Assembly: GCA_035248345.1 (NCBI GenBank)
Contig: DATFHO010000082.1
Span: forward strand, 2,410-66,409
From: Candidatus Limnocylindrales bacterium
GTDB taxonomy: Bacteria > Chloroflexota > Limnocylindria > Limnocylindrales > CSP1-4
Length of the DNA stretch: 64,000 nt
Reading direction: 5' to 3'
Shown here in pieces: positions 27,198-33,713 of this stretch (position 1 is the stretch's first letter; each line of letters opens with the position of its first letter). A program made the position numbers and the translations under genes. Below the pieces are notes generated by a model. It was given only the letters and a program-made list of their open reading frames with translations, searched no databases and was not told the DNA's origin.

Positions 27198-27551
27198 TTG
27201 GCACCGTCCCCCGCGCACATCCGCTCGACCATCGCGTCCGTCGTCGACCAGCCCGACGAGCTGCGCGCGCTGCGCATCGTCCACAAGACGCTGGCCGACG
27301 TGAACCGGCTGCGGATCGTCCAGCGCCTGGCGCAGGGCGAGGCAACCGTATCCGAGCTGATCGAGCGGGTCGGGCTCAGCCAGCCGCTGGTGTCGTGGCA
27401 CCTGGGTCGACTCCGCTACGCGGGTCTTGTCTCGACGCGCCGGGTTGGTCGCGAGACGATCTCGAAGCTCATCCCGGAGGCGTTCCGCGCCTTCAACGAG
27501 TACGAGCGCGGCGTCCTCGGCCTCGACCACCGCGAGCAGGCGCCATCGTGA
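27198..27551 (+). CDS. ArsR/SmtB family transcriptional regulator
   Basis: Winged-HTH block LADVNRLRIVQRLAQGEATVSELIERVGLSQPLVSWHLGRLRYAGLV. Confidence 0.85.
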   Translation: MAPSPAHIRSTIASVVDQPDELRALRIVHKTLADVNRLRIVQRLAQGEATVSELIERVGLSQPLVSWHLGRLRYAGLVSTRRVGRETISKLIPEAFRAFNEYERGVLGLDHREQAPS

Positions 27552-28246
27552 CCTCGATCGTCACCCCCGAGGCACGCCAGCGCGTCCGCGGCATCGCGAC
27601 GCCCATTGCGATGTTCCTCGGTCGCCTCGGACTGACCCCGAACGGCCTGACCGTGATCGGCTTCCTGGGGACCTGCGTCGCCGCGTGGGCGGCTGCCAGC
27701 CAGCTCTGGCTGCTCTGTGGCGTGCTCGTCCTCGTCTTCGGGATCTTCGACCTCTTCGACGGGACGCTCGCCCGCGCCACCGGAAAGGTGAGCCGCTTTG
27801 GCGCCTTCCTCGACTCGACGCTCGATCGCGCCGGCGAAGCGATCGTCTACGTCGGGATCGGGATCGGCTGCCTCAACGCGGCATTCGCCGGCGGTGCCGT
27901 CCTCGCGGCCGCCGCGATGGGCGCCGCGTTCATGGTCAGCTACACGCGAGCCAAGTCGGAGAGCCTCGGCTTCACGCCGGGCACGGGCATGGCCAACATC
28001 GGACTCGCGCCGCGCGAGGTCCGGATCGCGATCCTCGTCGTCGGCCTGTTTCTCACCTCGACGGCAGGAGCCTTCGCGAACCCGTGCGTCCCCTCCGCCA
28101 CCGGGACATGCGACATCTTCATGCCCGCCGGATTCGTGTACGGATCGACGTACCTCGGGGGCACGCTTTTCCTCATCTCGATCCTCGCGACGGTCACCGC
28201 GATACAGCGGATGCTCCACGTTCGCGCGCAGGCACGGGAGGACTAG
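27548..28246 (+). CDS. pgsA: CDP-alcohol phosphatidyltransferase (phosphatidylinositol-phosphate synthase-like)
   Basis: CDP-alcohol motif DLFDGTLARATGKVSRFGAFLDSTLDR (DxxDGxxAR...GxxxDxxxD). The assignment to the PIP synthase type rests on context next to ino1/pimA. Confidence 0.8.
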   Translation: MTSIVTPEARQRVRGIATPIAMFLGRLGLTPNGLTVIGFLGTCVAAWAAASQLWLLCGVLVLVFGIFDLFDGTLARATGKVSRFGAFLDSTLDRAGEAIVYVGIGIGCLNAAFAGGAVLAAAAMGAAFMVSYTRAKSESLGFTPGTGMANIGLAPREVRIAILVVGLFLTSTAGAFANPCVPSATGTCDIFMPAGFVYGSTYLGGTLFLISILATVTAIQRMLHVRAQARED

Positions 28247-28428: not shown

Positions 28429-29691
28429 ATGGCATCGAAGCACGGCAGCAGCAACGGCAACGGCAAGAACGGCCACGCCGAGAACACCTGGGCGGGCGCC
28501 GGGCGCCGGGGCGACGGCAAGATCCGCGTCGCGATCGTGGGCGTCGGCAACTGCGCGAGCAGCCTCGTGCAGGGCCGCTACTACTACGAGAACGCCAATG
28601 ACGACGACTTCGTCCCCGGCCTCATGCACGTCAACCTCGGCGGCTACCACATCAAGGACATCGAGTTCGTGGCGGCCTTCGACGTCGACAAGAACAAGGT
28701 CGGCAAGGACCTCTCCGAGGCGATCTACACGAAGCCGAACAACACGTACGTCTTCCAGCAGGTCCCCCACACGGGCGTGAAGGTCGAGCGGGGCATGACC
28801 CACGACGGCCTCGGCAAGTACCTCAGCCAGATCATCGAGAAGGCCCCTGGCCCGACGGCCGACATCGTCGGGATCCTCAAGGAGCGCGAAGTCGACGTCA
28901 TGGTCTCGTACCTGCCCGTCGGCTCCGAGCAGGCCACGAAGTGGTACGTCGAGCAGGCCCTCCAGGCCGGCGTCGCGTTCGTGAACGCCATCCCGGTGTT
29001 CATCGGCCGCGAGCCGTACTGGCAGCGCCGCTTCGCCGAGGCCGGCCTCCCGGTCATCGGTGACGACATCAAGAGCCAGGTCGGGGCGACGATCAGCCAT
29101 CGCGTGCTGACGCGCCTGTTCATGGATCGCGGCGTCCGCCTCGATCGGACCTACCAGCTCAACTTCGGCGGCAACACGGACTTCCTGAACATGCTCGAGC
29201 GCGAGCGCCTCGAGTCCAAGAAGATCTCGAAGACCAACGCCGTCACGTCGATGCTCGACTACGAGATGGACGCGGACGACGTGCACGTCGGCCCGTCGGA
29301 TCACGTGCCGTGGCTCCTCGACCGCAAGTGGTGCTACATCCGCATGGAGGGCACGACCTACGGTGACGTGCCGCTCAATGCCGAGCTCAAGCTCGAGGTC
29401 TGGGACAGCCCGAACAGCGCCGGCGTCATCACCGACGCCATCCGCTGCCTGAAGCTGGGCCTCGATCGCGGGCTCAAGGGCACCCTCGTGGCTCCGTCGA
29501 GCTACTTCATGAAGAGCCCGCCGCAGCAGATCCACGACGACATCGCGTTCAACCGGGTCGAAGCCTTCATCAAGGGCGAGGACAACGAGACGCTCGTCGG
29601 GACCGAGCCGGCGCCGAAGAAGGCGCTCAAGCGCCTGGCCGGCAAGAAGGCCACCGTCCAGGCGGGCGCAAAGGCGGCGGCCGGCGCGTGA
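28429..29691 (+). CDS. ino1: myo-Inositol-1-phosphate synthase
   Basis: 420 aa with [16 protein letters not shown] (NAD-binding N-terminus) and other typical bacterial/archaeal Ino1 blocks. Confidence 0.88.
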
Positions 29692-30713
29692 GCCCGGCAG
29701 CCGACCGCGGTCGGACGGCCCTCGGCAGCCCGGTGCGGCGCACCGGGCGAGGGCCGCGACTGGTCGAAAAGCTTGCGATCTACGGGTACCGCGCGGGCAC
29801 GTGGCTCATGAGCCGCGTGCCCGTTCGGCTTGCCCGCTGGATCGTGACCATCGGGCTCCAGGCGTCGTTCGTGCTCGTGCCGAGCAAGCGCCGGTACGTC
29901 AACGACAACTTCGCCCACGTGCTGGGCAAGCCGCCGTCGAGCCTGGAGGTCCGGCGGAAGGCGCTCGCCGCCTACCGCTCGTACGCGCGGTACGTCGTGG
30001 AGCTCATGCGACTTCCCCGCCTCACGAACGACGAGGCCGCGGCGCTCGTCGACACCTCGTCGCTCCTGCCCCTGGAGGCGTACTGGAAGCAGAGCGGCAA
30101 GGGCCTCATCCTCACGACCGCCCATATCGGCAACCTCGAGGGCGTCGCCCGCGGCATCGCGCGGCACGGCTGGCCGATCGCGGCGATCGCCGATGACTCG
30201 GCATTCCCCGAGCTGTTCGAGCTCCTGAGCCGCCAGCGCGGCGAATGGGGCGTGAAGATGATCCCGTGGCGGAACCTGCGTGACCTGTTCGGCGTGCTGC
30301 GCCGCAACGAGGTGCTCGCGCTCATCGTCGACTGGGGCTTCAAGCCGGACGACATTCCCGTGCGACTGTTCGGCGAATGGACGACGCTGCCGGCTGGTCC
30401 TGCGGTCCTGGCCGCGAAGTCCGGCGCCTCGCTCGTGCACATCGCGGTGCGCCGCTCTGATGACCGCAAGGGCTTCCAGGTGACGTGGAGCGAGCCGGTG
30501 CTCGTGACCTCCACGGATCCCGCCGAGATCCAGCGGGCCACGCAGGCCGTCGCGGATGCGCTCGAGGCGACGATCGCCGCGGCCCCCGAGCAGTGGTACA
30601 GCTTCAAGCCCCAGTGGCCGCCGACGCCCGCGGACAAGGCTGCGCTTGCCGAGCGCGTGGCGGCGCTCGCTTCCGTGGCGGGGTCCGGTGTCGCCCCGGC
30701 GGCCGCGAGCTGA
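29688..30713 (+). CDS. Lysophospholipid/lipid A-type acyltransferase (LpxL/HtrB/PatA family), copy 1
   Basis: Family-like blocks ([20 protein letters not shown]). The position matches patA in mycobacterial pgsA1-patA-pimA operons. GTGA overlap with ino1. Confidence 0.65.
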
Positions 30714-31720
30714 TGACCGAAGCGATGGCCGATACCGCGCCGGCAAAGGCCGCGCACGTGCCCGCGGATCGCCATGCGTTCAGCGTGCGCGCAGGGCTCA
30801 TCCAGGCCGCGAGCTGGATCGCCTGCCGACTGCCGGAAGGCCCGCTCCTCTCCCTCGCCGACCTCATTGGCCGCGCATGGTTCCAGCTCGCCACCGAGCG
30901 GCGGCGTCGCGCTCGACGCAACCTCACCCGCATCGTCCGCTGGATGGCGGACCACGACCTCGGCTCGGCGGAGGTTCGCGCGGCGGCCATCGACGGCCGC
31001 GCCCTGACCCGGCTCGTCCGCGAGGCGTTCAAGTTCTCCGCGCGCTACTACGTCCAGCTCGCGCGCGCGTCGATCGTCGACCAGGCGTACCTCGATCGAT
31101 GGCTCGACGTGGAGACGCCGGAGGTCCTCGATTCGACGCTCGGCACGCCGGGCGCCCGTCTGTTCGTCGGGCTGCACATGGCGTGGTACGAGCTGCCCGC
31201 GATCATGGCCGCCGAGCGCCGCGGCCAGCCGACGATCGTTCCCTCCGAGACGCTCGGTGATCCCGCGCTGCAGGGGTACATGGTCCGGACGCGCAACCGC
31301 ATGGGCCTCGAGCTCATCGAGCTCTCCGGCGCCAAGCGGCTCCTCAAGCAGGCGCTCCTCGACGGCCGGATCGTCGGCCTCCTCGGCGATCGCGACATCA
31401 CGGGCGGCGGGATCGACACGGAGCTGTTCGGGGCGCCCGCGCCGCTCGCGGTGGGCCCGGCGCTGCTCGCGATGGATACCGGGGTCACGCCGCACGTCTT
31501 CGGTGTGTGGCGGAGTCGCGACGGCGTGTACCACGTGAGCGCGGAGCCGATCCCGATGCCTGCCGAAGGCTCGCGACGCGAGCGTGTCACCGCATACCTC
31601 GCGGCCGAGGCGCGCGCGTTCGAGCAGCACATCGCGCGAGCGCCGGAGCAGTGGCTCGCGATCTTCCACCCGATCTGGCCGGACCTCGAGGCGGATCGCA
31701 CCGCGAAGGCACGCTCATGA
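30713..31720 (+). CDS. Lysophospholipid/lipid A-type acyltransferase (LpxL/HtrB/PatA family), copy 2
   Basis: Paralogous architecture (LFVGLHMAWYE, VGLLGDRD). TGATG overlap with copy 1. Confidence 0.6.
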   Translation: MTEAMADTAPAKAAHVPADRHAFSVRAGLIQAASWIACRLPEGPLLSLADLIGRAWFQLATERRRRARRNLTRIVRWMADHDLGSAEVRAAAIDGRALTRLVREAFKFSARYYVQLARASIVDQAYLDRWLDVETPEVLDSTLGTPGARLFVGLHMAWYELPAIMAAERRGQPTIVPSETLGDPALQGYMVRTRNRMGLELIELSGAKRLLKQALLDGRIVGLLGDRDITGGGIDTELFGAPAPLAVGPALLAMDTGVTPHVFGVWRSRDGVYHVSAEPIPMPAEGSRRERVTAYLAAEARAFEQHIARAPEQWLAIFHPIWPDLEADRTAKARS

Positions 31721-32535
31721 CGGAGCGGCTCGGTCGCGCGGATCTCCACATCCACACGATGGCGTCCGACGGCACCGCAAGCGTCGTCGACATCCTCGAC
31801 CATGTCGAGCGCACGACGCAGCTCGACGTCATCGCGATCACCGATCACGAACGGATTGACGCCGCCCTCGCGGGCCGCGCCATCGCCCGCGATCGCGGCC
31901 TCCGGTTCGAGGTCATCGTCGGCGAGGAGGTCACGACCCTCGGCGGCCACCTGCTCGCGCTGTGGATCGAGGAGCCGATCCGGCCATTCAGGTCCCTCGG
32001 CTCGACGATCGCCGCGGTCCACGACCAGGGTGGCATCGCGATCCCGGCGCACCCGCTCGTGCCGTATCCGCTGTGCGCGCAGGGGTTCCTGCTCCGCCGG
32101 CTCGCGGCCGGCAAGCCGCGCTTCCGACCCGACGCCCTCGAGGCGTTCAACCCGACGACGCTCGGCAAGCCGTGGCACGCGCGCGTGGTCCGGTTCGCCG
32201 ATGAGCTCGGCTTCGCCAAGGTCGGCAACTCGGATTCCCACGCGCTCGACGCGATCGGCTCCGGGTGGACCTCCTTTCCGGGCCGGACGGCGGAGGACCT
32301 GCGCGAGGCGATCCTGGCCGGCACGACCCATCACCACGGCACGTTTCACGCCACGGTGGGCCAGCTCGGCACCTTCGGGCAGCAGCTGCGCAAGTACGGG
32401 CGGGACGCGAAGGCGAATGTCGGCGGCGTGATCCGCCGCGACGGCACGCGGCGCGACCTCGGCTACCCGCCGGAGTACTCGGCGACGGGCGCCGGCTCGC
32501 CCGGATCGGCGGGCTCGCAGGAGGAGCCGCGATGA
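31717..32535 (+). CDS. PHP-domain metal-dependent phosphoesterase
   Basis: Motifs ADLHIHTMASDG, ITDHE, AHP and NSDSH are typical PHP His/Asp metal ligands. ATGA overlaps on both sides. Confidence 0.8.
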   Translation: MTERLGRADLHIHTMASDGTASVVDILDHVERTTQLDVIAITDHERIDAALAGRAIARDRGLRFEVIVGEEVTTLGGHLLALWIEEPIRPFRSLGSTIAAVHDQGGIAIPAHPLVPYPLCAQGFLLRRLAAGKPRFRPDALEAFNPTTLGKPWHARVVRFADELGFAKVGNSDSHALDAIGSGWTSFPGRTAEDLREAILAGTTHHHGTFHATVGQLGTFGQQLRKYGRDAKANVGGVIRRDGTRRDLGYPPEYSATGAGSPGSAGSQEEPR

Positions 32536-33713
32536 AGATCGGGCTCGTCACGCCGTACGTGTACCCGCTCCCGGGCGGCGTGAACCAGCACGTCCGCTAC
32601 CTGTACGAGCACCTGCGCCTGCGCGGCCACGACGTCCGGATCATCTCGACGAAGCACGGCGTCCAGCGCGCGTCGGACGGTGACGTCATCCGGATCGGGC
32701 GCGGCTTCTCGCTGCCGGCCAACGGGTCGGTCGGCACGATCACCGTCTCGCCGCGGTTCCTCTCGCAGGTCCGCGACGTCCTCGAGCGCGAGCAGTTCGA
32801 TCTCCTGCACTTCCACGAGCCGTTCGTGCCGTTCCTGTCGCTCGTCGTGCTCGGCCTGTCGAACAGCGTGAACGTGGCGACGTTCCACGCGTTCGGCGGC
32901 TTCTCGCCCGCATACTCGATCGGGTCGAAGCTCATGGGTCCGTCGGTCAACCGGATCCATGGCCGGATCGCCGTGTCTGCGGCGGCCCGCCACTTCATCG
33001 ACCGCTTCTTCCCCGGCGACTACAAGGTGATCCCGAACGGCGTCGACGTCGGCCGGTTCGACCGCGCGGTCCCGATCGCGCGCTGGCAGGACGGCACGAA
33101 GAACATCCTCTTCGTCGGTCGCTTTGAGCCACGCAAGGGCCTCCTCGACCTCCTGAAGGCGTACCGAATCCTGCGCAAGACCGGCTGCCAGTGCCGGCTC
33201 CTCGTGGTCGGCGGCGGTCCGCAGGAGAAGGAGATGCGCAGGTACCTCATGACCCGCAAGCTCGGCGGCGTCGAGTTCCTGGGCCGGGTCAGCGACGACG
33301 AGCGCGATGCGCTGTTCAAGACCGCGGACATCTACTGCTCGCCCGCGACGGGGCGCGAGAGCTTCGGCATCGTGCTGCTCGAGGCGATGGCCGCGGGGAC
33401 AGCGATCGTCGCGAGCGACATCCACGGCTACAAGGGCGTGGTCCGGCGAGGCCGCGAAGGCCTGCTCGTCCCGCCGGGCAAGCCGAAGGCGATCGCGGGC
33501 GCGCTGGCGCACCTGCTCGGCGACGACGAGCTGCGGGAGCGGATGGCCGCGTCGGGTCTCGAGCGCGCCCAGGAGTTCAGCTGGGAGCGCGTGACCCAGA
33601 AGGTCGAGGACTACTACGGGTTCGTGATCCGGCGCCTCGCCGCCCAGGGGCAGCTGCCCGAGGGCTTCCACGCCGAGGTGCCGCCCTCACCGCGAGTGCC
33701 GACGCCCGTCTAG
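32532..33713 (+). CDS. pimA: GT4 glycosyltransferase, PimA-like (phosphatidylinositol mannosyltransferase candidate)
   Basis: MKIGLVTPYVYPLPGGVNQHV N-terminus and an EX7E region (RESFGIVLLEAMAAG). Operon context with pgsA/patA. Confidence 0.7.
   Translation: MKIGLVTPYVYPLPGGVNQHVRYLYEHLRLRGHDVRIISTKHGVQRASDGDVIRIGRGFSLPANGSVGTITVSPRFLSQVRDVLEREQFDLLHFHEPFVPFLSLVVLGLSNSVNVATFHAFGGFSPAYSIGSKLMGPSVNRIHGRIAVSAAARHFIDRFFPGDYKVIPNGVDVGRFDRAVPIARWQDGTKNILFVGRFEPRKGLLDLLKAYRILRKTGCQCRLLVVGGGPQEKEMRRYLMTRKLGGVEFLGRVSDDERDALFKTADIYCSPATGRESFGIVLLEAMAAGTAIVASDIHGYKGVVRRGREGLLVPPGKPKAIAGALAHLLGDDELRERMAASGLERAQEFSWERVTQKVEDYYGFVIRRLAAQGQLPEGFHAEVPPSPRVPTPV

Follow-up and report, generated by a model that had tools for sequence, protein, structure and literature searches.

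A PHP-domain phosphoesterase encoded in the phosphatidylinositol operon of a Limnocylindrales bacterium as a candidate phosphatidylinositol-phosphate phosphatase

The synthesis of phosphatidylinositol (PI) in prokaryotes includes a single step without a generally assigned enzyme, the dephosphorylation of phosphatidylinositol phosphate (PIP), which has been solved genetically in Bacteroides only. Could this step be performed by a PHP-domain protein whose gene lies within a PI operon of Candidatus Limnocylindrales bacterium (Chloroflexota, class Limnocylindria; GenBank assembly GCA_035248345.1)? The window, i.e. the whole stretch of DNA that was analysed, comprises 64,000 nucleotides (positions 2,410 to 66,409 of contig DATFHO010000082.1) of a genome (G000) of 3.0 Mb, 94% complete and with a GC content of 70%. 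The gene occupies positions 31717-32535 of the window on the + strand and encodes a protein of 272 residues, referred to as P0001, which served as the reference query for comparisons. An earlier note, made from the letters of the window, had considered its operon position sufficient to make it a candidate PIP phosphatase. Our analyses support this candidacy, and we place the probability that P0001 is the PIP phosphatase of these lineages at roughly 0.6.

In Bacteroides thetaiotaomicron, deletion of BT_1525, a member of the PgpA family, leads to the accumulation of PIP-diacylglycerol (PIP-DAG), and the authors note that a PIP phosphatase had not previously been identified in any bacterium (Heaver et al. 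2022, PMC9246714). A review of 2022 lists the PIP phosphatase as unidentified, including in archaea (PMC9385802), and a preprint of July 2026 (bioRxiv 10.64898/2026.07.15.738315) calls the mycobacterial enzyme "long-sought" and puts forward EphE as a candidate. In the literature searched, no paper ties a PHP-domain protein to PIP dephosphorylation, and Bacteroides is the sole lineage in which an enzyme has been assigned to this step. The statement of the earlier note that the phosphatase had not been firmly assigned is consequently outdated for Bacteroides, while it still describes mycobacteria, for which EphE is proposed, and archaea.

The operon runs entirely on the + strand in the order ArsR-type regulator, PIP synthase (PIPS), inositol-3-phosphate synthase (Ino1), two PatA-like acyltransferases (AT), PHP protein and PimA. 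The PHP gene is translationally coupled on both sides: its start (ATG, 31717) and the TGA of the preceding gene share an ATGA (31717-31720), and its own TGA shares another (32532-32535) with the downstream ATG at 32532. The start at 31717 is consistent with the N-termini of PHP orthologues, and the frame is read without an internal stop. The coupling was correctly described in the earlier note, as were the flanking genes, a second PatA-like acyltransferase upstream (Lip_A_acyltrans) and a PimA-like glycosyltransferase of family 4 (GT4) downstream, the latter a true PimA orthologue. P0001 is the sole phosphoesterase of the operon and the only product beyond Ino1, PIPS, PimA, the acyltransferases and the ArsR regulator. 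The gap in the pathway fits the PHP protein because the operon supplies all the other activities, Ino1, PIPS, PimA and acyltransferases, and this protein is its only phosphoesterase. It is, furthermore, encoded together with PIPS and an inositol-phosphate synthase in a genome without PgpA or PAP2: PgpA (PF04608) was found neither in P0001 nor elsewhere in the 94%-complete genome, and PAP2 was likewise not found in it.

In the pathway that we propose, Ino1 would convert glucose-6-phosphate to inositol-3-phosphate, from which PIPS would produce PIP using cytidine diphosphate-diacylglycerol (CDP-DAG). By the established stereochemistry, the resulting PIP is PI-3-phosphate. The PHP-fold enzyme, cytoplasmic, equipped with a three-metal centre and probably peripheral on the membrane, would hydrolyse the phosphomonoester on the inositol ring to yield PI. 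PimA, encoded by the gene coupled to that of the PHP protein, would mannosylate the neighbouring 2-OH, and the two PatA-like enzymes would then acylate the product. The data show the gene with its complete ligands, its fold, its operon and the conserved context; in the scheme, we infer the order of the steps, the substrate and the attachment to the membrane via the basic helix at the C-terminus.

Judged from its sequence and predicted structure, P0001 looks catalytically competent. The ligand motifs named in the earlier note are all present in the translation (H11-I-H13-T, S17-D18-G19, D43-H44-E45, A111-H112-P113 and N171-S172-D173-S174-H175), and the PHP ligand set is complete (HxH, D, DH, E, H, H, DxH), as for a three-metal site. 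In Pfam the protein matches PHP_C (PF13263) with 50.3 bits, well over the required 21.3, and its score for PHP (PF02811), 22.6 bits, lies slightly below the cut-off of 26.4. An alignment of 36 homologues, with identities down to 34%, revealed D9, H11, H13, D18, D43, H44, E71, H78, H112, D139, E142, N145, D173 and H175 as invariant or nearly so; among these, D9, H11, H13, D18, H44, E71, H78, H112, D173 and H175 are likewise invariant or nearly so in all the PI-linked members. The AlphaFold2 model (mean predicted local distance difference test score, pLDDT, 90.9) comprises a beta/alpha barrel at residues 6-208 and a C-terminal helix at residues 213-235. Its strands and helices alternate as in the distorted (beta/alpha)7 barrel of the superfamily, and all significant Foldseek matches are to PHP proteins. 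Ligands and fold homology together indicate that P0001 is an active metal-dependent phosphoesterase, a conclusion that does not in itself name the substrate.

Structural comparison added little in this respect. The best Foldseek matches were BVU_3505 (3e38) and TM0559 (2anu), with E values of about 1e-10 and template-modelling (TM) scores of 0.55-0.60, followed by the PHP domain of RNase AM; the matches overall had TM scores of 0.5-0.6 and identities of 17-25%. TM0559 and BVU_3505 share with P0001 the compact PHP plus PHP_C architecture, but are only 17-21% identical to it, and, being themselves uncharacterised, they are uninformative as to the substrate. Neither the sequence search against solved structures nor Foldseek yielded a protein of known substrate so closely related that its function could be transferred, and a look-up in the ESM Atlas retrieved only Chloroflexota and Dormibacteria clusters of the family to which the PHP protein itself belongs.

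The linkage between the PHP gene and the PI genes is not a matter of local chance. At 80 of 80 loci from Limnocylindria, read as far as each contig extends, the order PIPS-Ino1-AT-AT-PHP-PimA was found wherever the contig reaches, while the identity across these loci falls to 36-50% for the acyltransferases and to 44-63% for PIPS. A more distant comparison included 20 loci of other Chloroflexota families, whose PHP proteins are 39-52% identical to P0001. At 15 of them the PHP gene is still part of the cluster, which reads Ino1-AT-AT-PHP-PimA-PIPS, with PIPS at the opposite end; this arrangement also occurs on the metagenome contigs L106, L109 and L111, the last of which is labelled as Dormibacteria. 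A third order, PIPS-Ino1-AT-PimA-AT-PHP, was detected on contig L113, whose taxon is tentative, being suggested by one Candidatus Goldiibacteriota (Goldbacteria) label in the 90%-identity cluster of its Ino1, to which a second look-up added none. Genome coordinates place PHP at most 3 kb from Ino1 in four more families, and the PHP-GT4 pair alone remains on L097 and L104. In the maximum-likelihood tree, the 23 PI-linked PHP proteins (23/23) and that of the PHP-GT4 pair of L097 constitute a single clade (support 94/80), and the homologues that are not linked to PI genes branch outside it. The check on co-occurrence of PHP and PI genes suggested in the earlier note therefore holds when it is made on gene neighbourhoods; in the form of presence and absence it was uninformative, and a few related PHP proteins come from genomes in which PI genes were not found, as detailed below.

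A further line of evidence is provided by Actinomycetota. A search with P0436 uncovered a family of proteins of about 640 residues in which a GT4 domain is followed by PHP and PHP_C. The family is large, with at least 8000 search candidates and more than 100 relatives among the matches listed, often in multi-member clusters and originating from several source types. On contig L123 (1.4 Mb), two proteins of which cluster at >=90% identity with proteins labelled Solirubrobacteraceae (Thermoleophilia, Actinomycetota), such a fusion (P0440, 644 residues, L123:6001-7935) forms part of the arrangement TetR-PIPS-Ino1-[GT4::PHP]. As in P0001, a homologous PHP domain is present, 34% identical over residues 4-202 and with the same ligands except for D18->H and H78->E, and its gene comes directly after those of PIPS and Ino1. 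Unlike P0001, this domain is joined to a PimA-like domain without catalytic motifs: the GT4 half aligns end to end with PimA of the window (27% identity), but the GGV loop, the R/K pair and both EX7E glutamates, motifs that are invariant across 23 PimA orthologues, have been replaced. The branch that carries the fusion is long and falls outside the Chloroflexota PHP clade, and either a shared PI-linked ancestor or separate recruitment could account for the two forms. No other single observation, in our view, argues as strongly for the proposed function as this three-gene operon: two of its products would make PIP and the third is a phosphoesterase tied to what appears to be a dead copy of the PI-binding PimA.

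Another set of about 80 long proteins (P0366-P0435), which join acyltransferase with PHP or PHP with GT4 and were retrieved when longer forms were sought with P0001, was rejected as true fusions; the fusion family proper came to light only with P0436 as the query. They are probable frameshift read-throughs, because each is alone in its cluster, on one contig, and joined in the order of the operon itself. Nearly all of them come from ENA assemblies; indel errors in translationally coupled genes can mimic fusions.

The persistence of the linkage bears on one alternative, in which P0001 would be a housekeeping PHP hydrolase without any part in inositol-lipid synthesis and would owe its position to inherited synteny. 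All the Chloroflexota cases could stem from one ancestral operon, and some homologues are unlinked, but the linkage has outlasted at least three rearrangements, the independent fusion in Actinomycetota and deep sequence divergence; we regard this explanation as highly improbable. The role of PIP phosphatase, which the earlier note derived from operon position, now finds backing in a linkage that persists through three gene orders, in the Thermoleophilia fusion and in the failure to find PgpA and PAP2 in the 94%-complete genome.

The nearest characterised relatives of P0001, RNase AM and a 3',5'-nucleoside bisphosphate phosphatase, would favour a nucleotide-directed helper that hydrolyses a by-product or donor, such as guanosine diphosphate (GDP), GDP-mannose, cytidine monophosphate (CMP) or adenosine 3',5'-bisphosphate (pAp). 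The mycobacterial operon offers an analogy, in the form of a Nudix gene after pimA. The TrpH/YciV group (RNase AM, 7ug9 and 9etk; Cv1693, 2yb1) indeed has the PHP fold in common with P0001, along with the HxH...D...DH motifs near the N-terminus. Nevertheless, only about the first 70 residues (approximately 7-76 of P0001) align with RNase AM and Cv1693, whose chains contain some 80 extra residues after the N-terminal motifs, before the alignment resumes, and whose substrates are nucleotides or RNA. The scores against the TrpH/YciV equivalogs NF047791 and NF041577 (42.6 versus 375 and 30.8 versus 400 bits) place P0001 outside the group, as it stays far under the cut-off of every NCBIfam equivalog model, and the three-gene operon of Thermoleophilia lacks an active enzyme using GDP-mannose, which leaves this helper role quite unlikely.

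Another family of alternatives is concerned with soluble substrates. Characterised PHP phosphatases act on small soluble phosphomonoesters, e.g. histidinol phosphate and pAp. P0001 might thus dephosphorylate a sugar phosphate, either inositol-3-phosphate, in the manner of an inositol monophosphatase (IMPase), or a glycosyl-inositol-phosphate, as in the MshA2 step of mycothiol synthesis. The presence of Ino1 in the same operon agrees with such a function, and so do weak NCBIfam matches to PHP models of enzymes acting on soluble phosphomonoesters. The closest named model is the CehA/McbA metallohydrolase domain NF038032 (66.6 bits versus 80, residues 7-159), to which P0001 falls short of belonging, as it does, far more widely, for histidinol-phosphate phosphatase NF004981 (19.9 bits versus 117). 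Dephosphorylation of inositol-3-phosphate would, however, consume the substrate of the operon's own PIPS, and the genome has two genes of the IMPase family outside the operon. The GT4 of the window is orthologous to PimA rather than MshA, with a full-length match to Mycobacterium smegmatis PimA (2GEJ/4N9W) at E 1.5e-64 as compared with 1e-23 for MshA.

The C-terminus of the protein also points to the membrane. The tail of P0001 is basic and amphipathic (hydrophobic moment about 0.5; net charge +3 to +5 per stretch of 18 residues), and the tails of all the PHP relatives examined are aromatic-rich and have net charges from 0 to +10, above zero in all but one. A basic amphipathic C-terminal helix of this kind would fit binding to an anionic membrane surface. 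Together with the lipid-acceptor scaffold derived from PimA in the fusion, this tail stands against a soluble substrate, a possibility that we rate as unlikely. The prediction of a complex between PimA and the PHP protein gave a score of 0.00 in two runs, which counts neither for nor against binding.

A membrane-associated enzyme could also act at another point of the same pathway, either on a later intermediate, if PimA or the acyltransferases acted on PIP first, or as a general lipid-headgroup phosphatase, directed to phosphatidylglycerophosphate (PGP) or another lipid and also accepting PIP. It is PimA, and not PIPS, that constitutes the tightest and most persistent neighbour of PHP, as illustrated by the isolated PHP-GT4 pairs of L097 and L104. 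Moreover, basic-tailed PHP proteins occur away from PI genes, including a paralogue in the genome carrying the window. This second PHP_C gene (34% identical to P0001; G000:C76:10867-11592 = L002:1510-2367, - strand) is found between mreB and an LPG_synthase_TM gene (MprF-like membrane domain), and its product has a basic tail with a net charge of +9. Against this, the Thermoleophilia operon consists of PIPS, Ino1 and the fusion only, and the lack of catalytic motifs in its GT4 half makes a mannosylated substrate hardly possible there. The genome, in addition, has no second CDP-alcohol transferase to make PGP, since the only CDP-OH_P_transf gene found in the whole genome is that of the operon's own PIPS. 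Although less improbable than the foregoing alternatives, an action at another point of the pathway still seems to us rather unlikely. The single CDP-alcohol transferase, along with the failure to find PgpA and PAP2, is also the reason why inositol lipids may be the main or even the sole CDP-DAG-derived phospholipids of this organism.

As a PIP phosphatase, the PHP protein would likely represent a non-homologous variant of a known activity. BT_1525 (PIPPh) performs the PIP-to-PI reaction proposed for P0001, and its gene is likewise clustered with those of PIP synthase and inositol-phosphate synthase. Its PgpA fold, however, is not homologous to the (beta/alpha)7 PHP barrel of P0001 and its three-metal site, and its function is backed by a knockout, whereas that of P0001 is predicted. 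The mycobacterial pgsA1-patA-pimA operon belongs to the same pathway, with PIPS, PatA-like and PimA families and the same gap between PIPS and PimA; the operon of the window differs from it by the additional ino1, second acyltransferase and ArsR regulator. No PHP gene is known from the mycobacterial operon, and the mycobacterial candidate EphE is an alpha/beta hydrolase, unlike the PHP-fold P0001.

Several observations weigh against assigning PIP dephosphorylation to P0001. The support comes from gene context and association. The closest structures (3e38 and 2anu) carry no known substrate, and those PHP relatives that have been characterised use nucleotides, RNA or histidinol phosphate rather than lipids. 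Homologues 41-51% identical to P0001 exist in genomes where the searches found only part of the PI gene set or none of it: genome G383 has a PHP homologue, but Ino1, PIPS (with the query used) and a PimA orthologue were not found, and in G255, which also has one, PIPS and a PimA orthologue were not found. Conversely, G199 (family f45) contains an AT-AT-PimA-PIPS cluster without a PHP gene (L124 = G199:C14:295000-314500), its PHP homologues being located elsewhere in the genome and its Ino1 38 kb from the cluster. The unlinked cases are less damaging because the tree puts these sequences outside the PI-linked clade, but the root of that tree falls on two long branches and is uncertain.

A survey of 401 sampled Chloroflexota genomes sets a further limit. 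Several Ino1-positive families (e.g. f31, f36, f47 and f50) had no PHP match at E 1e-10, so that another enzyme must be capable of dephosphorylating PIP in them. Ino1 occurs almost throughout the phylum (364/401 genomes, with PHP-like matches in 353/401), so that presence and absence say little there, and no score threshold separates the PI-linked from the other PHP proteins of these genomes. Inositol metabolism itself looks near-universal in Chloroflexota, as judged from the same 364 of 401 genomes with Ino1. Outside the phylum, Corynebacterium glutamicum, which makes PI and phosphatidylinositol mannosides (PIMs), has no PHP_C protein, which also counts against a general assignment: PHP is not the general PIM-pathway enzyme of actinobacteria, and the mycobacterial question is not solved by it, since Corynebacterium is without such a protein.

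With these reservations in mind, a broader proposal can be formulated, for which we see even odds. PHP_C enzymes with a basic amphipathic tail would constitute a third non-homologous solution to the conversion of PIP to PI, beside BT_1525 and the mycobacterial enzyme, in Chloroflexota, in their Dormibacteria-labelled relatives and in Thermoleophilia, where a dead PimA would have been captured as a lipid-binding module; more broadly, the clade would consist of phosphatases of membrane-lipid headgroups. If the assignment is true, lipid headgroups would be substrates new to the PHP superfamily, none having been described in the literature searched, and a lipid would join nucleotides, nucleic acids and amino-alcohol phosphates as its known substrates. 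It would also complete the PI pathway of very abundant soil bacteria (Chloroflexota and Thermoleophilia), and would define PIPS, Ino1 and phosphatase as a compact three-gene PI module.

The remaining genes of the operon were identified as follows. PIPS, a CDP-alcohol phosphatidyltransferase of the PgsA1/archaetidylinositol-phosphate (AIP)-synthase type, is encoded at 27548..28246 (+; Pfam CDP-OH_P_transf). Among NCBIfam models it scores highest against archaetidylinositol-phosphate synthase (125 bits), followed by PIPSynth (109 bits). Neither score reaches the equivalog cut-off, but that against the PgsA model, about 25 bits, is far lower still. Ino1 follows at 28429..29691 (+; Inos-1-P_synth, 5.6e-35), with 536 bits against TIGR03450 (cut-off 638). 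The first PatA-like acyltransferase (29688..30713, +; Lip_A_acyltrans, 7.9e-33) overlaps ino1 through a GTGA, and its top NCBIfam match is the PIM acyltransferase PRK07920 (137 bits, below the cut-off), the same model that the second acyltransferase (30713..31720, +) matches with 116 bits, also below the cut-off. The second acyltransferase starts at ATG 30713, with a one-base overlap with the preceding stop (a TGATG within 30710-30716); position 30710 was rejected as its start, the codon there being CTG. The PimA orthologue, a predicted GDP-mannose:PI alpha-mannosyltransferase (32532..33713, +), is the last gene of the operon.

The first operon gene (27198..27551, +) encodes the ArsR-type helix-turn-helix (HTH) regulator (Pfam HTH_5, 1.5e-13), the stop of which overlaps the start of the PIPS gene in a GTGA. 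An ArsR/HTH_5-type regulator also heads the cluster, with a different gene order, in L109 (4495-4827) and in the Dormibacteria-labelled L111 (3635-3979), which suggests a conserved transcriptional control of PI synthesis. Other associations of PHP relatives were recorded in passing. In L109 an LPG_synthase_TM gene comes after the PI operon, and among the relatives of approximately 41-44% identity, P0250 (571 residues) consists of PHP and PHP_C fused to a GT2 glycosyltransferase, and P0258 (392 residues) of PHP fused to a STAS domain.

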